DNA of 64,000 nt. It comes from a virus. Taxonomy: Duplodnaviria > Caudoviricetes. The translations under genes were made by a program, and so were the position numbers. Positions 20,718 to 41,700 of this stretch are shown here, piece after piece; the stretch's first letter is position 1, and every line of letters begins with the position of its first letter. Where the stretch lies: positions 1,033 to 65,032 of IMG/VR virus record IMGVR_UViG_3300017716_000997; one strand, 5' to 3'. The notes below the pieces were generated by a model. That model was not told the DNA's origin. It was given only the letters and a program-made list of their open reading frames with translations, and ran no database searches.

Positions 20718-21017
20718 ATGACTTATAAGAACGAATTCCCCGATTTTGCTTATAACTTGCCCGACTTGGGCAAAGGTTGGGAAGACAACTCATGGCACAA
20801 CGACTCTTGTCCTTCCTTAGATTATCCGCTTGAGGGTGGGAAGATGCTCCGCATTTGGTTTCAAGAGTCTAACCCTGAAGAGAGGGAGTGCGGTGGCAAG
20901 CAGTTTGTTTTAGTAGTTGGTGAATATGGTGACTCAGATCACCTTATGGAGTCGGACGATTTAAACGAAGTTCTAGCCTATATCAAGGCTAACAAGCTAA
21001 CCAAGGAGCAAGCATGA
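20718..21017 (+). CDS. Early hypothetical protein (99 aa)
   Basis: AGGAG RBS; WEDNSWHNDSCPS motif; ends KEQA. Confidence 0.7.
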   Translation: MTYKNEFPDFAYNLPDLGKGWEDNSWHNDSCPSLDYPLEGGKMLRIWFQESNPEERECGGKQFVLVVGEYGDSDHLMESDDLNEVLAYIKANKLTKEQA

Positions 21018-21361: not shown

Positions 21362-21595
21362 ATGAAAACCACTCAAGTAAATTTAAAAAAGAAAGACTTT
21401 GAAAACCTTTTATTCCATGCGAATAAAAAAGAGCCTTTGGGCTATCGCAAGCATTACGAGCAATATGGCGAGTCAACCGCTCCGATCCATCTCTACTACA
21501 CAACAGATGGAAGGCATTTAGGCACTTACCACGATGGTAAAAGCTGGTTTTTTGATGAAATTTACAACAGTTTAAAAGTGAAGGAGCAAGCATGA
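21362..21595 (+). CDS. Early hypothetical protein (77 aa)
   Basis: AAGGAG RBS; ends KEQA. Confidence 0.65.
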   Translation: MKTTQVNLKKKDFENLLFHANKKEPLGYRKHYEQYGESTAPIHLYYTTDGRHLGTYHDGKSWFFDEIYNSLKVKEQA

Positions 21596-22785: not shown

Positions 22786-23789
22786 ATGAATAAAAAAGAG
22801 CGCACAAGGATGGTTAAACATCTTTTGGATGTACAGGAATCAATAGCTTATTTGCAAGAGCGGGTCAGGCTTAGTAAGGGTATAGACCTAGAGATTTTAA
22901 ATAAGAACTTAAAGTATGCTGTTAAAAAAGAGGAGGAGTTATGCAAGAAAACTGGCTTTGGGGATTTGACCAATTCATCAACGACATTACAACGACTAGA
23001 GGGAAAAGCATGAGAATGAAAAGCTATGCAGTAAAGATTCATTACAGTGGAACTAATACTTACTTCGTAACTGCGCCCGATTATGAGGAGGCAGAGGAGG
23101 CAGCCTATGATGAATTTCAGAATGACATCGGGGATTTATCCCAATATACTGAGGTTACTGACATTGAAGCTGAAGAGGATGGTGATGAAGAATGAAAAAG
23201 AATTCTTTCAAGAACTGCTAAAGCTGGAGAAGATCCAGCCTAGCGCACCATTGACCATCAAGGAGATAGAGTCTATTTACTTTGATGTGTCGATGCAAAA
23301 GAGCATTAGCCCGCTTATCGACTTCGTTAGGCGGATTGAAAACGCACATGGAATAGGAGTACACAATGACTAGAGATGACCTTATTTGCGCTGTAATGTT
23401 TGGCCTCATGGTGGCAGCCTTATGCCTGGCATAGAGCGGGACAGGCTTATGCCGGTGATGCACAAGCTAGTAAAACAGGGGGGTTTTGCTGGTAGAATAG
23501 GTGAAGCAGCGATGTTGGCTGATGAGACTAACCTAGAACTACTGGTAAATACCTTCCCTCAGATGTTTATTGAGGGTCAGGCTTTGGAGAAACCTCGATG
23601 GACGCCACGATTATATATCTCAAAGATGGAAAAGACGGAAAGATGGAAGTAAGCATGGAGCTGATAGGCGAACCTCATCAGTCTTTTCTGGTGGGGAACG
23701 CTATCATCAACAACCTTTACAACTTGGACAATACTGTATTTGTAGAGAACGAGTTTACGAAACAGCCTCCAACAAACCTAGTGCAATAA
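22786..23789 (+). CDS. Cluster of small early hypothetical genes (about 22786-23013, 23010-23195, 23185-23373, 23422-23652, 23598-23789)
   Basis: Tightly overlapping ORFs, several with GGAG/GAGG-type RBS; starts inferred; no recognisable domains. Confidence 0.5.
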
Positions 23790-30376: not shown

Positions 30377-30405
30377 TTTACAATTCTAATAGTTGTGATT
30401 ATAGT
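30377..30405 (+). promoter_or_regulatory. Sigma70 promoter of the rightward block
   Basis: TTTACA-17 nt-TATAGT, then GAGGAGAGG RBS. Confidence 0.7.
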
Positions 30406-30427
30406 CTTAAAAAAAGAGGAGAGGTAT

Positions 30428-31033
30428 ATGAGAGAGTATCGAGTAAAAGTAACGGTTAGAAATAACTTGTTACTGTCAGCAATTGAGGGCGCTGGCTATA
30501 AGACGCAGGCAGAGTTTGCTAGATCTTGTGAGATCCCAATGACTGCGGTTAATGAATTGGTTGCCATGCGTAAAGCCCCGATTGGAGTGGATGGTGAGTT
30601 TATTTATTCAGCCAAAGCCGTTATGGAAGCATTGGGTGCTTGTCCCACCGATCTGTGGACGGAAGAACAGTTAACAATGGAATTGCGCAGAAACACAGTA
30701 GAAAAAGAGCTTAGCAAAGAGGCGGTTATGCAGGCTCTTCAATGGGAGGGCGCATCAAACTTAGAAATAGCTCCACCAGAACATGATTTAGAACATCAAC
30801 AAATAAAGCAGGTTATTGAAACGGTTTTGGATACTTTAACCCCAAGAGAATCTAAGATTCTTAAGTTGCGTTTTGGCATTAGTAATGTTGAAAACGATGG
30901 AGCAACTTTGGAAAAGATTGGATCAATATTTAGAGTAAACAAAGAAAGAATTAGACAACTTGAAGCTAGAGCATTAAGAAAGTTAAGGCACCCATCAAGA
31001 TCAAACGTTTTATTAGAAATTATAGAGGAATAA
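30428..31033 (+). CDS. HTH + RpoD region-4-like protein (no sigma region 2 seen)
   Basis: N-terminal XRE-like helix (TQAEFARSCEIPMTAVNEL); C-terminal VLDTLTPRESKILKLRFG...TLEKIG...ERIRQLEARALRKLRHPSRS. Confidence 0.8.
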   Translation: MREYRVKVTVRNNLLLSAIEGAGYKTQAEFARSCEIPMTAVNELVAMRKAPIGVDGEFIYSAKAVMEALGACPTDLWTEEQLTMELRRNTVEKELSKEAVMQALQWEGASNLEIAPPEHDLEHQQIKQVIETVLDTLTPRESKILKLRFGISNVENDGATLEKIGSIFRVNKERIRQLEARALRKLRHPSRSNVLLEIIEE

Positions 31034-31035
31034 AA

Positions 31036-31920
31036 ATGACAGATAGACAACGCAGACTGAGGGATTACTTCGCAGCCAAGGTGATGAGTGGCATGTGTTC
31101 CGGTGATTGGAAATTTGATTTATCCAGCGGAAAGACCTGGGATGAAGTAGCTGCTAAGAGAGCTTATGAGCTGGCTGATGCCATGCTTGCTGAGCGTGAA
31201 ATTGAAAACATACCGACATCGCATTGATATGACTGAACTAATTATTGCTGCGGTTGTATTCATGGTTTGTTATGCAGTCTTCCTGTTTATGAAAGGTAGA
31301 TGATGGCTGGTAAGAAGCGAGAAGAGTTTTTCAAACTTGATAACAGTATTACTTATTACTTAAAAGATTATGTGGACGACAGAGATAAGCAAAGAAAAAT
31401 TATCCAAAGGAACAATGGCGATTTGTTCTACATTTTTAAACCAAGAGGAGAAGCAAATGAATGCAATATGGGAGACAGCTAACAAGATTAGCGAATTAGG
31501 CTACAAGGTACATAGTGCTGCAATGGTAGTGGAATTAGTAGCTACTAACATTACAGATAACGCAGAAAGCGGTGCTTGCTGGTGCGCAGTAGACGCTCTT
31601 ACAAGAGTCAGCGATGAACTAGAATCAGAAGTAGCGCATTTGATGAGTGAGAACCGTGCGCAAGAAGAATGCATTCGTAAGCTAGAGGCGGTAATAGCCA
31701 AGCATAAGCTAACTAAGGATGCAAAAAAATGAAAATTACTGAGGCTAAGATAACCTTTACGGCAGACATTGCATCCTATTGCATGGATGAGGTAGTTAAA
31801 AAAGGAAAGTTGATTGATTATTTTGTTGAAGCATTACGACAAAGCAGCGATAGAGAATACAGTTTTGTGTTTAGCAACATGGAGTTGCGAACAGAGGGAG
31901 AAGTTGAGGTATCAATATGA
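31036..31920 (+). CDS. Small hypothetical genes (31036-31227, 31300-31482, 31457-31732, 31729-31920)
   Basis: Coupled ORFs; first has LRDYFAAKVM...AYELADAML motif common in phage microproteins. Confidence 0.55.
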
Positions 31921-32774
31921 AGAAGTTATGCGTGGTGAACTTTTGGGAAGGTGGATTTGATGGAGACTTCTTTGAATACTTCTTCCAGCGGGCATTGGGT
32001 GGGTTCGAGTACACAGACAATCCATATACTGCAGACCTTATCGTAACCTCTGTCTTTGGAAATGCTCACTATGATCAGCGAAAAACTATTGCGTACATTG
32101 GAGAGAATGTTAGACCTAGCTACATGGGCTACGACCATTCTCTTTCTTTTGACTATGACAGTTACGGTGGACGTAATTTTCGATTACCTCTATGGTACTC
32201 ACGGTTAGCATGGCCCGGCTTTGAATTAAAGCCACGCAGAGCCAATGCTCATAATCATGGGTACGAACCATTGATTGAGATTGCGCCGCTGACGCAGCCA
32301 CGCATATTAGACTGGGATAAGAAAGATAAATTCTGTGCCATGATTGCTGGTAATCCTGAAGGGTTGCGCATTAACTTGTTTAACTCTATTACTAGGTATA
32401 AACCCGTACATGGGTTTGGTAATATGTTTAACAATTCTTTGCGTCAATCTAAGTTCTCTGTCCTGCCTGAGTATAAGTTCTGCCTATGCCCTGAGAACTC
32501 TGTTTACGATGGCTACATTACCGAGAAGTTATTAGACGCATATGCGGGCGGTACTATACCAATCTATAGCGGAACCATGTCGGCTGACTGCGACTTCCAT
32601 GAGGGTTCTTATTTAAACTATATGAACACCAAAGACATGAACTGGTTCGTCACAACCATTCAAGCTATTGATGAGAGCAAAGAACTCTACGAGGCTATGT
32701 ATACTAAGCCCCTACTTTGGGAAGAACCCAGTCTTGATAACGCATTAGATTTTGTACGGAATATAGTGCAATGA
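31917..32774 (+). CDS. Alpha-1,3/4-fucosyltransferase-like glycosyltransferase (GT10)
   Basis: YKFCLCPENSVYDGYITEKLLDAYAGGTIPIYSG matches GT10 YKFxLxFENSxxxGYxTEK...PIYxG; KFCAMIAGNP. Confidence 0.85.
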   Translation: MKKLCVVNFWEGGFDGDFFEYFFQRALGGFEYTDNPYTADLIVTSVFGNAHYDQRKTIAYIGENVRPSYMGYDHSLSFDYDSYGGRNFRLPLWYSRLAWPGFELKPRRANAHNHGYEPLIEIAPLTQPRILDWDKKDKFCAMIAGNPEGLRINLFNSITRYKPVHGFGNMFNNSLRQSKFSVLPEYKFCLCPENSVYDGYITEKLLDAYAGGTIPIYSGTMSADCDFHEGSYLNYMNTKDMNWFVTTIQAIDESKELYEAMYTKPLLWEEPSLDNALDFVRNIVQ

Positions 32775-35700
32775 ACCTATTTAACGGCGATGAAGATCTG
32801 CAACGGCGGTATGCTGATGCGCTCAAGACCAGCGTTGATAAGACATTTGGAGTTGAAATGAACAATGAACGCAGTCTTGCCAAAGAAATAACAGAAGGAT
32901 TTGAAGCACTTAAATCTATGAGAAACAATGAACCAGTAGCGTGGATGCTTGCAGATAAAGAAGCGGAACATATCCGTAGCATTATGGCGGTGAAACATGA
33001 TTTTGTGCCTAAAGGATGCGTTGAAATTCCACTCTATACCCATCCAGTAAAAGAACAAGACACAGACTGTCAGTATTGCAAACAAGGATGTATTCGTTGT
33101 GATGCTAGAAAGCAACTAACAGATGAGGAAATAGCAGAAGTCTTTGACAATACTTTTAAAGTGCGTGACTTTGAAGATGCGTTTTTAAAGTTTGCTAGAG
33201 CAATACTAAGAAAGGCACAAGAATAATGAACTGGATACTTGTTATTTATATTTATGCTGGCGTATTAGCTAGTGGTGATAGCGTTTCAATTACAAACATA
33301 CCTAATTTTTCAACAAAACAAGATTGCATACAAGCTGGTAGAGATGCTGAAGGGTTAGTGTCAGGAAGCACAAAAGTGTATAGGTTTGTTTGTTTAAGAA
33401 AGGCACAACAATGAACGCAAATGAACTTACTGCTTTAATTTCAGAATGTTTGAGAGAAATAGACGACCATGAGTTTTTCTTAAAACTTGAATCTGTACTA
33501 CGCCAGCAACAAGCCGAAATTGAGGCGTTGAAAAACTGGCAAGATACATGGCGACCTTTTCTTAAACAACATTTTGGGATAGAGAAATGAACAATGAACC
33601 AGTAGCGTGGCTATGGACTAAAAACGGAAAGCCACAGTCGGCTTTATTGCATGAACCTGATACTGTTCCAAGTGACCCATACTGGAAAGATAAAGGGTTT
33701 AAAGCAATTCCACTCTATACCCATCCAGTAGAACTAACAGATGAGGAAATATTAAATTTATGGTGGGATTCAGACCATACTAAAGATGAAGATGATTTAA
33801 TTCTTACTTTTGTCAAAAGAATTTTAAAAGAAAGGTAAAAAATGAGTAGCTATATAGAAGGTTTTGAAGATGGTGTTAGAGCCACTAAAGCGGAGTATTT
33901 AAAACTGCTTGAAGAAGAAAGTCATCCAGTGAAAGAACTATCAGAAGATGAAATAAAAGAAGTTGCGGATAGTGTTTGCCACGATTGGGATGAAGATGGA
34001 TTAGGTCATCTGTACATGGTAGATTTTGCTAGAGCAATACTAAGGAAGGCACAAGAAGCCGACAAAATTGAATCTTTGGGAACTGTCAATATTGGTGGTG
34101 TCCACTTTAGAAATGGAAAGGAAGTGAAATGAGTAACGAACCAGTAGCAATAGTTAAAAAAATAACTATAAGCGGAATAGACAATTTTTCAATAGAAAGA
34201 TTTACCGAATTGAAAGAAGGAACTTTGCTCTACACCAATCCAACAGACCAAACAGACGAAGAAATAGAAGAATTTGCTAAAAAAGCTGGAGTGGTTTTTG
34301 ATGAAAGATACAAAGGTGAAGTTACTTTTATTTCAAGAGAAGCATTTAAACGATTTGCTAGAGCAATACTAAGAAAGGCACAAAAATGAATAATGAACCA
34401 GTAGCGTGGATAGATTACCTAGAACATAGCGATGTATATGACCTTAATGTAAGTGGTCGTGGTATTCCACTCTATACCCATCCAGCACAAAAACCAACAA
34501 TGGTGCTTGACGGCAATCATGTTTACCCTTCTTTTAAAGAACTATCAGATGAGGAAATAATGGAAGTGATTGAGGAAATTGAATGTACTTATAACCCTGT
34601 AGAAATTGAAATGAGTTATGACTATGAAGTTAGACTTGCTAGAGCAATACTAAGAAAGGCAAGTGAGAAATGAACGCAAATGAACTAGCCGACAAAATTG
34701 AAGATGCTCGTAACGAAACTGATTTTCAAAAATGGGCAGGACAAGCACCAGATATGCTACGCCAGCAACAAGCTGAAATAGCCGAACTCAAGCACATGAA
34801 TCGTAACTGGCAGATTTCAGAAAATATCTTATTACTTGAACTGGAGAAACTACAACATCGTGAACTAACAGATGAGGAAATAGGGCAGTTCAAAGGCGAA
34901 TGGTACAGGGGTGACTATGCTTCTTTTTACGATTTAGTTAGAGCAATACTAAGAAAGGCACAAGAATAATGAACGCAAATGAACTAGCTGATGCCCTAGA
35001 CGCCATAGGTGACAAGTATCTTGTCATACTGGGTGACATACATTTTAAAGAAGCGGCTGCCTTTGTACGCCAGCAACAAGCTGAAATAGAGGCGTTGAAA
35101 GCCGTGCTAGAACAAGAAGGCATTGGCGTTGGTCGTGATTTATTAAATGGTGGTATTGCTTTGTTTAGAAAGGCGCAAAATGAACAATAAACCAGTGGCA
35201 TGGAGAAACTTATTAGCCGATGAAGAAGACCAAGACGGCACATGGTTTTACAACGAAGTTGGTCAAGGAACACCACTCTATACCCACCCAGTAAAAGAAT
35301 TAGCCCTGACTGATGAAGAAATGATTAGCATTTACGAAAAAGATTGGTCAGGAATTAAGTGTGGTTTAGGTAGGGCTGTTGAACAAGCAATACTAAGAAA
35401 GGCACAAAATGGTTGAAGCCAAACTGTTACGCAAAAAGTTAAAGAATGGCTTGATTGTTGATAAATGGGACTTAGTAACTATTATTGAAAAGCAACAAAC
35501 TGAAATAGAGGCGCTAAAGAAAGATAACAAAGAACTACACGCTATTGCGCAACGAATGGCTATGGCAGAGTCTGATGCTAGAAAGTCATTGCAATGGTTT
35601 AAGGATGTTCAGGCAATAAGTTCAGGTGAAAAAACGATACTAACAGATGAGGAAATAAATGTAGTAGCCATTCTTCAAGATGCTGAAATTGTGCCAGTAG

Positions 35701-35795
35701 GACATGAGATTTGGAAAACTGGCGAAGAATTTAACAAATACAAAAGGATTGTATTGGCTACTGCCAAAGCACTAAGAAAGGCACAAGAGTTATGA
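32771..35795 (+). repeat. Array of 11 modular microgenes built from six recurring DNA blocks
   Basis: ORFs 32771-33226, 33226-33414, 33411-33590, 33587-33838, 33842-34132, 34129-34389, 34386-34673, 34670-34969, 34969-35190, 35180-35416, 35409-35795; shared NEPVAW, PLYTHP, LTDEEI, ARAILRKAQ, MNANEL, RQQQAEI. Confidence 0.9.
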
Positions 35796-36661
35796 AAGAG
35801 AAGTATGGAATCAAACATTTTGATGGGCCAGTAATGGAGCTGACCACAATGGTTGGGTGTCCGCTGATGTGCAGCTTTTGCCCACAGGAGAACCTTCGAG
35901 ATAGCTACGGCGATAGCGAAAAGTATATGCAGCCAGCAGACTTGGTAACAGTCCTTGCACAGCTTCCAAAAGACACTAGGATCGATTTTTCAGGGATGTC
36001 TGAGCCTTGGGCTAACCCTTACTGTACGGAGATGCTAGAGACCGTTCTATACATGGGATTTAACATTGCCATATACAGCACTTTGTATGGAATGACGGAT
36101 CCTGAGCGAGTCCGTAAAGTCTTGGAAGACCATCCTAACCAAGTGGATGTCATTATGCTTCACCTTCCTGATGCCAATGGCAACATGAAAGGCTGGAAGA
36201 ATAGTGAGGAATGGCAGTACGCTGCTGCGGTAATGTCCCATACCAATATTCCCTGTGGCGTTGGTGCTATGACAATGGATAGCTCAGGTCTAGTGCATCC
36301 AGAGCTTCAGTCTATGATTGGTCGTCTTCCTGGTTGGCAAGGACATACACGGGCGGATAGTTTGAATACTGAACAAGTAGCCGGTCAAGCCATCAGCATT
36401 ACTCCAATGAATACCTTTCCACTAACCTGTAGGAGTACCCCATTCTATGATCGTAACGTTCTGCTACCTAATGGCGATGTTGTGCTTTGTTGTATGGATT
36501 ACAACCTTAAGCATATTATCGGCAATCTATTAAATCAAACTTATAAAGAGATCTTTCAGGGTAAACCCTTACTAGACCTTATTGAAATGAATGAGGCAGA
36601 TGGGTTTAACAAATGCAGTATTTGCAAATCTTGTGAGAATGTGACCGAACTAAATGTATAA
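35792..36661 (+). CDS. Radical SAM enzyme with SPASM/Twitch-like C-terminus (289 aa)
   Basis: CPLMCSFC (CxxxCxxC), FSGMSEP, VLLPNGDVVLCCMD, CSICKSC. Confidence 0.9.
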   Translation: MKEKYGIKHFDGPVMELTTMVGCPLMCSFCPQENLRDSYGDSEKYMQPADLVTVLAQLPKDTRIDFSGMSEPWANPYCTEMLETVLYMGFNIAIYSTLYGMTDPERVRKVLEDHPNQVDVIMLHLPDANGNMKGWKNSEEWQYAAAVMSHTNIPCGVGAMTMDSSGLVHPELQSMIGRLPGWQGHTRADSLNTEQVAGQAISITPMNTFPLTCRSTPFYDRNVLLPNGDVVLCCMDYNLKHIIGNLLNQTYKEIFQGKPLLDLIEMNEADGFNKCSICKSCENVTELNV

Positions 36662-39382: not shown

Positions 39383-39553
39383 ATGATTGATTACGTAGAA
39401 ACTACGATTGCATTACAAACAGGTAAGAGAAAATTGGATGACCTATTGTTAAAGAAGAAATACAAAGAGGCAGTCAACCAAACGGACGACATGATTGTTG
39501 CGTTGATTGATTTGAAATGGTGGCTGAGGAAACAAAATGAAAATAACAAATAA
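39383..39553 (+). CDS. Microprotein (56 aa, not in ORF track)
   Basis: GAGGA RBS; MIDYVETTIALQ... Confidence 0.5.
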   Translation: MIDYVETTIALQTGKRKLDDLLLKKKYKEAVNQTDDMIVALIDLKWWLRKQNENNK

Positions 39554-40418
39554 ACATAATTTACCCCAGACATTTGTAAATGTACTGGAGCGTCCTAGCT
39601 ATGACAAGGGAGTTGCACATCTATCAGCTACTGAGTTATTGGGAAGCCCGCAGATTTCAGTATTGAAGAAGCGTCATTACGAAGAGCTAGAAGAAGATGC
39701 AATGGATATGGTTTGGTCTATGTTTGGAACAGCCATTCATAACATCCTTGAGAAGGGCGCAGACGAGCATCACATTGTTGAAGAGCGTATCCATGCAGAA
39801 CTAGATGGATGGAATATTTCTGGAGCCATTGACTTACAGCACGTCCTTGAAGATGGCATTGAGGTTAATGATTATAAAACTGTTGGTGTATATGGGGTGA
39901 TGCATGAAAAGAAAGAGTGGGAAGAACAGCTTAACATCTACGCCTGGCTTGTTGAGAAGATTAAAAAGCAACCAGTTGTCGGACTCAAGATTGTCGCAAT
40001 CATTCGAGATTGGAGCCGCAGAGATGCAGAGAATAGGGCTAATTACCCAAGAACGCCTGTGGCAACTATTGATATCAACCTATGGCCTATGGAGCAACGT
40101 GAAGAGTTTATCCGTAACCGCATTCATTCCCACTCCGAAGCATTATTCGCTGCTGAAACAGGAGCAACATTACCGCCTTGTACGGCTGAAGAAATGTGGG
40201 AAAAAGAAACCGTCTACGCTCTCAAAAAGAACGGAGCCGTAAGAGCTAAGTCGTTACATGCAACTATCGAAGAAGCAGAAGCAGCACTTGAAGAAGCGGG
40301 CAAAGGTTTTTCTATTGAGACCCGTCCGGGCGAGCGTACACGCTGTAAGTACTATTGCCCAGTAAGTAACTATTGTCAGCAGTACAAACTTTATACAGAG
40401 GAGCAAGAAAATGTTTAA
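39537..40418 (+). CDS. PD-(D/E)xK exonuclease, Cas4-like (293 aa)
   Basis: MFGTAIHNILE, ISGAIDL, VNDYKT, QLNIYAW, C-terminal RCKYYCPVSNYC. Confidence 0.85.
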   Translation: MKITNKHNLPQTFVNVLERPSYDKGVAHLSATELLGSPQISVLKKRHYEELEEDAMDMVWSMFGTAIHNILEKGADEHHIVEERIHAELDGWNISGAIDLQHVLEDGIEVNDYKTVGVYGVMHEKKEWEEQLNIYAWLVEKIKKQPVVGLKIVAIIRDWSRRDAENRANYPRTPVATIDINLWPMEQREEFIRNRIHSHSEALFAAETGATLPPCTAEEMWEKETVYALKKNGAVRAKSLHATIEEAEAALEEAGKGFSIETRPGERTRCKYYCPVSNYCQQYKLYTEEQENV

Positions 40419-40838: not shown

Positions 40839-41020
40839 AAACAAGGCAAGAGTTAATTTTAGATTTTATGTTGGCGTTGGCTTCAAACCCAAAAGTGGTC
40901 AAACCATTTGACCATGAGGATGAAATTGCTCCAGATTATTATGATGTTTTTTCCTCAGATTTGTATTCATTTGCAGCCGAAATGTCAGATGTATATTTAA
41001 ATAATGGGGAAATGAAATGA
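40835..41020 (+). CDS. Hypothetical protein (61 aa)
   Basis: Coupled ORF, GAGGA RBS. Confidence 0.55.
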   Translation: MKTRQELILDFMLALASNPKVVKPFDHEDEIAPDYYDVFSSDLYSFAAEMSDVYLNNGEMK

Positions 41021-41700
41021 GTGTTTATAAGAAGTTACAAGAAGCCCGTATGAAGTTACAGAATACGGCGCTTAAGAAGTCTGGTCATAATAAGTTTGCT
41101 GGGTACTACTACTTTGAATTGGGTGACTTCCTGCCAGCTATTCAAAAGATTTGTGCTGAGATGGATCTATGCGGTGTTGTATCGTTTGATCACAACATGG
41201 CTTTCCTGCAGATCAATGACACAGAAGATGGTACTTCAGTGATGTTTACCTCACCTATGTCTAGCGCTGCTTTAAAGGGCTGCCATGACGTTCAGAACCT
41301 AGGCGCAGTACAGACTTACCTCCGTCGCTATCTCTGGGTTAATGCCTTTGAGATTGTGGAACATGACGCCTTGGATGCAGTCATGGGAGCAGACGCACCA
41401 AAAAAGTTTGATACGGTAGTAGCTAAACCTGCTCCCGTTAAACCAACACCAACTAAACCAGCAGTTAAGGCCGCCTTACCGGGTGAATGGACTCTTAAAC
41501 CAATCGGGGATGATTTTACCGAATCATTGAAGGTTGGGCTGGACGCTATGCTGCAACTAGCCACGTCACCAGATGACGTAGCAAACATCTTTAAAGTCAA
41601 TCGTTCTTCATTTGATAAGGTTAAAGAGATGAGTCCTGAAGCTTATGCAGAAATGATGACTAAATTTACCGCAACAAAAAATTCATTAACAAAGGAGTAA
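41017..41700 (+). CDS. erf: ERF-family single-strand annealing protein
   Basis: KKSGHNKFAGYYYFELGDFLP...LGAVQTYLRRY (GxxxxYxRRY ERF signature)...DALD. Confidence 0.8.
   Translation: MSVYKKLQEARMKLQNTALKKSGHNKFAGYYYFELGDFLPAIQKICAEMDLCGVVSFDHNMAFLQINDTEDGTSVMFTSPMSSAALKGCHDVQNLGAVQTYLRRYLWVNAFEIVEHDALDAVMGADAPKKFDTVVAKPAPVKPTPTKPAVKAALPGEWTLKPIGDDFTESLKVGLDAMLQLATSPDDVANIFKVNRSSFDKVKEMSPEAYAEMMTKFTATKNSLTKE

Follow-up and report, generated by a model that had tools for sequence, protein, structure and literature searches.

The window analysed here is a stretch of 64,000 nucleotides (nt), positions 1,033 to 65,032 of the IMG/VR virus record IMGVR_UViG_3300017716_000997; it covers nearly all of this 65,032-base record, a complete podovirus-like phage of about 65 kb from a freshwater metagenome. 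In the early operon of this phage, between a GT10 gene on the left and a radical-SAM gene on the right, positions 32771-35795 are filled by eleven open reading frames (ORFs) of the + strand, which overlap their neighbours by 1-11 nt (ATGA/TAATG-type), with one gap of 3 nt. These microgenes share six short blocks, named A to F, and the original prediction, made from the letters of the window alone, had described them as mosaics in which the blocks alternate with unrelated segments (cassettes), produced by in-frame cassette shuffling. The features of the locus are collected in Table 1.

Table 1. Blocks, microgenes and flanking genes of the array (positions are those of the window; aa, amino acids).
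Feature	Position	Strand	Remarks
GT10 fucosyltransferase-like gene	31917..32774	+	left flank, outside the array; anchor in relatives
Radical-SAM/SPASM gene	35792..36661	+	right flank, outside the array; anchor for 60 related loci
Block A, 18 nt, NEPVAW	32927..34409	+	exact at 32927, 33593, 34392; variants 34135, 35186
Block B, 22 nt, IPLYTHP	33026..34485	+	exact at 33026, 33707, 34464; variant 35270
Block C, 18 nt, LTDEEI	33116..35657	+	exact at 33116, 33734, 34865, 35640; 1 mismatch 34542; variants 33938, 34249
Block D, 18 nt, AILRKA	33200..35404	+	exact at 33200, 34363, 34644, 34943, 35387; 1 mismatch 34034
Block D, lite forms	33395, 35166, 35769	+	
Block E, 17 nt, start codon plus MNANEL	33411..34985	+	copies at 33411, 34670, 34969
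Block F, 16 nt, within RQQQAEI	33499..35081	+	copies at 33499, 34758, 35066; variant 35485
ORF1, 151 aa	32771..33226	+	leader, pre-A cassette, A, A-B cassette, B, Cys-rich B-C cassette, C, C-D cassette, D
ORF2, 62 aa	33226..33414	+	unrelated hydrophobic microprotein with D-lite tail (LRKAQQ), between two D junctions
ORF3, 59 aa	33411..33590	+	E-F module only
ORF4, 83 aa	33587..33838	+	A, B, C, degenerate D (RILKER)
ORF5, 96 aa	33842..34132	+	without A-B head; degenerate C, D with 1 mismatch, extra C-terminal tail
ORF6, 86 aa	34129..34389	+	degenerate A, B, C; intact D
ORF7, 95 aa	34386..34673	+	A-B-C(1 mismatch)-D; its A-B head is the commonest in the family
ORF8, 99 aa	34670..34969	+	E-F-C-D
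ORF9, 73 aa	34969..35190	+	E-F, D-lite tail (FRKAQ)
ORF10, 78 aa from family-type start	35180..35416	+	variant A and B, C-like block, D
ORF11, 128 aa	35409..35795	+	coiled-coil head with variant F, then C, C-D cassette, variant D

All 21 exact block copies listed in the original prediction were found at their positions (21/21). Exact copies occur on the + strand only and are confined to the array, and the expectation by chance, from mononucleotide shuffles of the window with three mismatches allowed, is 0-0.1 hits per block; a repeat search of the window recovered the same block families, several of them longer than the cores given in Table 1, D together with the next start reaching 38-53 nt. 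The combination of blocks differs from ORF to ORF, as had been proposed, once the degenerate copies are counted, and the inter-block segments are indeed unrelated, since they cannot be aligned between paralogues within the window. The further proposal that D serves both as the end of one gene and as the ribosome-binding site of the next also agrees with the sequence: the block carries a purine-rich stretch, 7-11 nt ahead of the next start, as well as this start itself, and with the following stop and start codons it forms a gene-boundary junction of 35-50 nt. ORF11 overlaps the start of the radical-SAM gene, and for ORF10 an upstream ATG at 35147 is also open. The array region has no Rfam match, promoter- or terminator-like sites are not in excess there, and its + strand junctions contain none; the array can thus be read as a segment of a single rightward operon.

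Cassette shuffling at the short blocks, in frame, is directly visible between genomes, including those from other lakes. The array was compared by blastn with 145 related loci (designated by L numbers), and the pieces of high identity are bounded by blocks: cassettes of the window are found in other contigs and lakes at 84-100% nucleotide identity, with different partners. In the L141 gene, an A-B cassette matching that of ORF7 (~95%) precedes a B-C cassette matching the Cys-rich one of ORF1 (~97%), and the C-D cassette is its own; the L143 gene has only the B-C cassette in common with ORF7 (one mismatch), placed between unrelated A-B and C-D cassettes; in base-by-base alignments of these two genes, identity begins and ends within blocks A, B, C and D. 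The A-B cassette of ORF7 recurs at 93-96% identity in L062/L063/L070/L141, and its B-C cassette at 98% in L143-L145, where the flanks are unrelated. As to ORF1, its pre-A cassette together with block A (32856-32945) matches L019-L021 at 100% identity, and in L050 this cassette is fused to an unrelated protein; the part from B to D is 84% identical to L141/L142, and the C-D cassette occurs at 87% in L083/L123/L139, with a different head in each. The D-ORF2-D stretch (33188-33408) is 87% identical to positions 946-1166 of L080, the C-D-E stretch of ORF8/ORF9 (34862-34995) is 94% identical to L111, and positions 33923-34056 of ORF5 are 78-81% identical to genes of L012 and L099 that carry A-B heads. 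Finally, the C-D cassette of ORF10 (35306-35404) is present at 96% in L101, behind an A-B-A-B head, and that of ORF11 (35630-35788), which follows a coiled-coil head in the window, at 92% in L097 behind an A-B head, while the ORF11 head (35415-35520) is found at 93% in L111 with a different tail.

The ends of the matches were compared with the positions of the blocks: among matches of at least 88% identity and at least 75 nt, block zones (within 10 nt) hold 21 of the 26 match ends, against 39% expected (p about 1e-5, the ends not being fully independent). At the level of the family, 252 distinct proteins with at least two blocks were parsed; the order A-B-C-D is found in 151 of them, whose inter-block segments fall into 50 A-B, 37 B-C and 114 C-D clusters with many-to-many pairing, and range in length from 17 to 41 aa (A-B), 2 to 69 aa (B-C) and 15 to 43 aa (C-D). 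Recombinant genes were recovered repeatedly, P0090 on 6 contigs and P0007 on 9 contigs in two different neighbourhoods. In three freshwater runs of other studies, single cassettes (32856-32946, 33942-34049 and 35641-35775) recur with 0-1 differences and, at the blocks, continue into other sequence; block-containing bins in freshwater runs reach summed depths in the thousands.

The identity at synonymous positions, which had been noticed in the window, is real and reaches well beyond its genome. In codon counts based on 28-108 context-distinct copies per block, the block codons are nearly fixed, rare ones included: Leu of block B is CTC in 94% of the copies against 6% in the genome background, and the corresponding figures are 97-100% against 21% for Ile ATA, 82% against 15% for Ala GCG and 97% against 17% for Arg CGC. 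A single DNA version of block A accounts for 60 of 73 context-distinct copies across contigs, and the common A-B head exists in only 5 distinct DNA versions in the viral set. When identical residues are considered, the codon of the window is used in 94% of the cases in the blocks (n = 556), whereas in the radical-SAM gene, for the same genome pairs, this value is 49% (n = 5403). Of 401 distinct block copies at the DNA level, as many as 398 are in the peptide frame, inside an open stretch of at least 45 codons; the cassette interiors have a ratio of non-synonymous to synonymous changes (pN/pS) of 0.10-0.30, corresponding to purifying selection, which indicates that the cassettes encode real peptides. 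These patterns fit a situation in which the blocks may be kept young and uniform across the gene pool by recombination, the cassettes persisting as old and distinct alleles.

The position of the array was examined in 60 loci (L001-L060), with the radical-SAM gene as anchor. The slot between the GT10 and radical-SAM genes is, in most cases, either reduced to 0-9 nt or occupied by a 240-aa gene with a weak FkbM-type methyltransferase match (E 0.002), as in L001:6282-7004 and about 25 other loci; the window lacks this gene and has the microgene array in its place. Microgenes of the family number 0-3 per locus, and their position varies: they are found upstream of the GT10 gene, between the two genes, or downstream from the radical-SAM gene. 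The closest relative, L001 (radical-SAM identity 96%), has none within 7 kb. The family profile gives 8 hits in the genome of the window and 2-4 in each of three other complete carrier genomes; these counts, together with the varying positions, indicate that the array of the window is an unusually large expansion located at a variable hot spot. Relatives show no fixed collinear array, and the conservation of the blocks includes synonymous sites, the opposite of what the original prediction had named as evidence against itself. In several relatives with a microgene upstream of the radical-SAM gene, the same D junction abuts the radical-SAM start; this junction joins unrelated genes as well, namely ORF2 and the radical-SAM gene.

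The microgenes form a very large family that has no name and is known only from uncultured phages. ORF7 (A-B-C-D) and ORF8 (E-F-C-D) have 339 and 335 relatives, respectively, in the protein collection, many of the latter sharing a single cassette only, at over 90% identity, and IMG/VR yielded at least 600 pattern hits, 358 of them confirmed. None of the array ORFs reached a curated threshold or received a named function in Pfam, PHROGs, PADLOC (a library of defence proteins, not of counter-defence) or NCBIfam; a Pfam scan of ten of them at E up to 1 gave nothing above any cut-off, a PDB sequence search and Foldseek against PDB and BFVD gave no usable match, and the ESM Atlas returned only unnamed viral clusters with a low-confidence model. 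The link to Ea22/Eaa-type proteins that had been suggested for the array was not supported, as Ead_Ea22 is absent from the Pfam hits of the ten ORFs at E up to 1 and the only GenBank hit is weak and metagenomic; membership in the Ead_Ea22 family was rejected on the same profile result. This hit, the record MW202753, is the sole relative among the GenBank phages (50,697 records; blastn and tblastn), so that no cultured phage is usable as a model. Seven hits in GTDB genomes (L146-L152) occur in metagenome-assembled genomes labelled cyanobacterium, Bacteroidetes, Micrarchaeota, Nitrosotalea and Flavobacterium; these labels are mutually unrelated, and the hits are most likely mis-binned phage contigs, so that no host is named. 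Literature searches by motif string and keyword returned no paper on the family.

The family proteins are acidic (median pI 4.86; pI below 5.5 in 84%). The consensus of a 122-member alignment opens with 42 nearly invariant residues that form the head (start, A, one common A-B segment, B, a linker of 3 residues and C); about 20 positions with no majority residue follow, and then an invariant tail around D. Other heads and inserts also occur in the family. In an AlphaFold2 model of ORF7, built from this 122-sequence alignment (pLDDT 71.5, pTM 0.44), residues 7-9 at A and 27-29 at B are predicted to form short strands, the B-C insert a small hairpin, while helices begin at C (55-68) and span D (78-93). 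This model, although of moderate confidence, is compatible with a fixed mini-scaffold bearing variable loops, the architecture that had been imagined for these proteins.

Two observations concern ORF1. A 16-nt start junction (GAAATGAACAATGAAC) is present at 33584-33599 and also at 32855-32870, inside ORF1 and 84 nt past its ATG, and the L019 homologue of ORF1 starts near this internal junction, so that ORF1 has the appearance of a family gene to which a 28-aa leader was joined on the upstream side, at a fossil start junction. The Cys-rich B-C inserts (33048-33115 in the window, and those of L019, L118 and L141) have at least four cysteines with CxxC-type spacing, like a zinc knuckle or ribbon, and 3 of the 44 long B-C cassettes contain at least three Cys; judging from these motifs, the scaffold can apparently host a small metal-binding insert.

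The reading preferred here, with a probability of about 0.7, is that the array is a local expansion of this family, assembled from cassettes that are shuffled by homologous recombination at short in-frame blocks encoding the scaffold. Its foundation is what the comparisons demonstrate, i.e., the mosaic structure, the breakpoints at the blocks, the synonymous uniformity of the blocks and the purifying selection on the cassettes. Each block would have two jobs: it would encode a constant element of the scaffold, A and B being predicted beta-strands and C and D predicted helices, and its near-identical nucleotides, spread through the population, would supply the homology for in-frame exchange of the intervening segments; D, with its stop and the next ATG, would in addition be the gene-to-gene junction and carry the purine-rich stretch that precedes the following gene. 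The units that would assort independently are the pre-A, A-B, B-C, C-D and E-F cassettes, as well as whole genes between D junctions. Exchange would take place between co-infecting phages, and probably also between paralogues, with a cassette pool common to lakes and phage lineages as the outcome; selection would be purifying on the cassettes and probably diversifying between alleles. The shuffling presumably proceeds by general homologous recombination during co-infection, with whichever phage or host enzymes are present. A PD-(D/E)XK nuclease gene (39537-40418) and an ERF gene (41017-41700), which sit 4-5 kb downstream of the array, are candidate recombination machinery of this phage and not a requirement. 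As for the role of the proteins, a guess is that they are binders of variable host or defence targets, with variable loops on a fixed mini-scaffold.

Several points weigh against this reading. Recombination was never directly observed, and the evidence is all comparative and comes from assembled contigs. In related cassette pairs, synonymous codon differences amount to 9.3% in the flanking blocks and 14.3% in the cassette interiors, a gap that is significant but modest; much of the block uniformity may thus be due to exchange and a recent common origin rather than to selection favouring recombinogenic sequence. As a rule, block variants from the same genome are no more similar than those from different genomes, since the permutation test was negative for five of the six blocks and only block B gave a positive result (p = 0.0135), partly driven by the window; intragenomic conversion is therefore not demonstrated. 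The structural side depends on an ORF7 model of only moderate confidence, and the reading does not account for the origin of new cassettes. Moreover, profiles of ERF, RecT and AAA_24 found no match in the three complete carrier genomes, which by itself does not show that a recombinase is lacking; no phage recombinase is thereby tied to the family, and the dependence on ERF that the original prediction had proposed to test is not supported.

A stronger version of the preferred reading would be that the blocks are maintained as nucleotide sequences for evolvability. Synonymously uniform in-frame handles would let any head, insert or loop recombine during co-infection, possibly, by analogy with the PeSL cassettes described below, via excised mini-circles; the phage population would run a combinatorial library of scaffolded microproteins, with tandem arrays as both donors and products, and the resulting proteins, a new class of variable binders, would confront fast-evolving host factors or defences, a logic comparable to that of immune-receptor or antigenic-variation cassettes. 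This extension is offered tentatively and is considered unlikely. Going one step further, to a dedicated and currently active device (the original prediction had seen in the array a candidate for an undescribed diversification system), the blocks would be recombination handles under second-order selection, and the array would be reshuffled on ecological time scales by the ERF/exonuclease pair or by an unrecognised factor, yielding a combinatorial library of binder microproteins. The uniform block nucleotides with their rare codons, the somewhat lower synonymous divergence of the blocks compared with the adjacent cassette interiors, the near-identical cassettes found in different combinations in different lakes, which imply recent exchange, and the location of the largest array seen, 4-5 kb upstream of the nuclease and ERF genes, are all in line with such a device. 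It is nevertheless improbable: the scanned ORFs (those of at least 100 aa, not every ORF of the window) include no reverse transcriptase, invertase or integrase, homogenisation within genomes is not general, three complete carriers are without a match to the three recombinase profiles mentioned above, and the contigs of the source run show a single arrangement at even depth, rare variants being invisible there. Known devices were rejected on similar grounds. A diversity-generating retroelement is contradicted by the lack of a reverse transcriptase domain in the scanned ORFs and by variation that consists of unalignable cassettes and not of point substitutions; a shufflon or invertible segment by the orientation of the exact block copies, which are all direct, and by the lack of such a recombinase in the scanned ORFs; and integron-like cassettes by the lack of an integrase in the scanned ORFs and of any Rfam or structured element in the array region.

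The blocks might instead be kept by a function of the RNA or DNA, such as ribosome binding, translational coupling, codon choice in start regions, or a site for a regulator or nuclease, with recombination as a side effect. Blocks D, E and the start-proximal A do lie at gene junctions with ATGA/TAATG overlaps, and D, with its purine-rich stretch before the next start, precedes unrelated genes too; however, B, C and F lie inside genes, away from any start, the searches for Rfam families and for an excess of promoters or terminators were negative, and virtually all block copies are in the peptide frame of open ORFs, none being found on the other strand or outside genes, which makes this explanation clearly improbable. 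Ordinary tandem paralogues, i.e., recent duplication in the genome of the window with the blocks as conserved protein motifs and no cassette exchange, would account for the tandem layout, the shared motifs and the slight within-locus excess of identical B variants. They would not account for window cassettes that recur in other genomes beside unrelated neighbours, for paralogues with nothing in common between the blocks, or for block codons that are uniform although core genes share the codon at only ~49% of identical residues; the many-to-many pairing of cassettes, the L141 and L143 mosaics and the C-D cassettes shared behind different heads already contradict this reading, which is highly improbable. 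An equally poor candidate is an assembly artefact, in which metagenome assemblers joined reads of different phages at short repeats and so created false mosaics, perhaps even the array itself. The blocks are extremely abundant in the same metagenomes, and in the probable source run the Logan k=31 unitigs stop precisely at D junctions (33196-33231, 34354-34390 and 34945-34968); these junctions fragment assembly graphs, so that the order of the array rests on the repeat resolution of the original assembler. Nevertheless, the block cores (16-22 nt) and the longest junction (about 50 nt) are shorter than usual reads and the final k-mers of assemblies, the depth of the array in the Logan contigs of the source run is even (~64-71), and recombinant genes such as P0090 and P0007 recur in independent assemblies.

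Among known systems, the closest design to the proteins of the array is that of the gp38 adhesins of T-even phages. In PMC3157838, which cites Tetart et al. 1996, 1998, conserved glycine-rich motifs (GRMs) are described as separating hypervariable segments; the motifs are thought to be the structural core and the variable segments the recognition loops, and exchanges that make chimeras occur within or near the motifs. The likeness is one of design only, invariant motifs alternating with hypervariable segments in one protein and exchanges taking place at the motifs. Unlike gp38, a virion adhesin with a known role in host range, the array encodes early-region microproteins of 60-150 aa with a wide range of cassette lengths, in which whole head modules (A-B type and E-F type) are swapped, the genes are in tandem, and one block doubles as a gene-to-gene junction; homology with gp38 is not indicated, as the array proteins have no family or fold match and their genes belong to an early operon and not to the tail genes.

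In T4-type phages, PeSL cassettes are short conserved repeats between small non-essential early genes of hyperplastic regions; they are non-coding units of a promoter and a stem-loop terminator, and recombination between them inserts, deletes or replaces whole small genes (PMC2839356, PMC4122927). The D junction resembles them in being repeated at the boundaries of small early genes and in the gain, loss or replacement of genes there, as seen at the radical-SAM start, for ORF2 in L080 and in the varying slot. In contrast to PeSLs, the repeats of the array are coding, in frame and mostly intragenic, the shuffling is both sub-genic and genic, and no unit of promoter and terminator was detected, such sites not being in excess and none lying on the + strand at the array junctions.

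A third comparison is with the linker, or boundary-sequence, model of phage mosaicism, reportedly put forward by Susskind and Botstein and by Clark et al. on HK620. The mosaic joints of the array, like those of this model, coincide with short shared sequences, the exchange proposed is driven by homology, and the phage encodes an ERF-family protein and a PD-(D/E)XK nuclease. The cases for the model are gene-sized modules of temperate enterobacterial phages, whereas the joints of the array are 16-22 nt long, lie inside reading frames and are reused hundreds of times in the population. Rad52-like phage recombinases are known to drive mosaicism by relaxed homologous recombination at short or diverged homology (PMC3945230). 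A single-strand annealing protein that is recognisable and common to the carrier genomes was not found, a further difference from the linker model. In the pilE/pilS system of Neisseria, variable minicassettes have short conserved in-frame flanks that guide recombination, with silent donor loci, one expression site and dedicated cis elements, all in a single genome. Compared by description, the array is similar in its variable cassettes between short conserved in-frame sequences, but its copies are apparently all expressed genes of one operon and the exchange is seen between genomes.

Phage mosaicism has been attributed, in a long-standing debate, either to homologous recombination at short conserved linkers or to random illegitimate joins filtered by selection. 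For the linker model, the microgene family provides unusually clean and plentiful natural data, and it does so at sub-gene resolution: gene variants are counted in hundreds, breakpoints are resolved to blocks of 16-22 nt, and the same cassettes turn up in several lakes. A second point of interest is the proteins themselves, a large group of early phage microproteins that combine hypervariable inserts with a constant mini-scaffold; as this architecture is typical of arms-race molecules, the family is a reasonable place to seek host-takeover or counter-defence functions. In practical terms, assembly graphs break at the junction repeats, and members of the family appear in bins assigned to unrelated bacteria and archaea.

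In the rest of the window, one arm comprises terminase, portal, capsid, SU10-type adaptors and large internal or tail proteins, while the middle is a divergent early/replication region with a C5 methylase, a helicase, Toprim, RusA and a sigma-70 region-4 protein, to which the GT10 glycosyltransferase, the radical-SAM/SPASM enzyme, GT2 glycosyltransferases, the PD-(D/E)XK nuclease and the ERF protein also belong. The runs that hold parts of the window are lake or freshwater metagenomes. The nearest cultured terminases are those of the pelagiphages HTVC027P/023P, with 52-55% identity, which is too distant for host inference. The first gene past the best rightward promoter-like site (30377-30405) is located at 30395-31033 on the + strand and encodes a 212-aa protein whose only strong match is to sigma-70 region 4.

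Elsewhere in the early region, a 96-aa ORF at 23083-23373 (+), with no Pfam hit, contains 'IKEIESIYFD' near its middle and has a C-terminal part '...DFVRRIENAHGIGVHND'; these motifs recall the C...D tail (LTDEEI ... FARAILRKA) and make the ORF a possible distant relative of the C-D module. Two unrelated small early ORFs, at 20718-21017 and 21362-21595 (+), share a '...KEQA' tail immediately ahead of the next start, which suggests that the theme of linkers at gene boundaries extends beyond the array.

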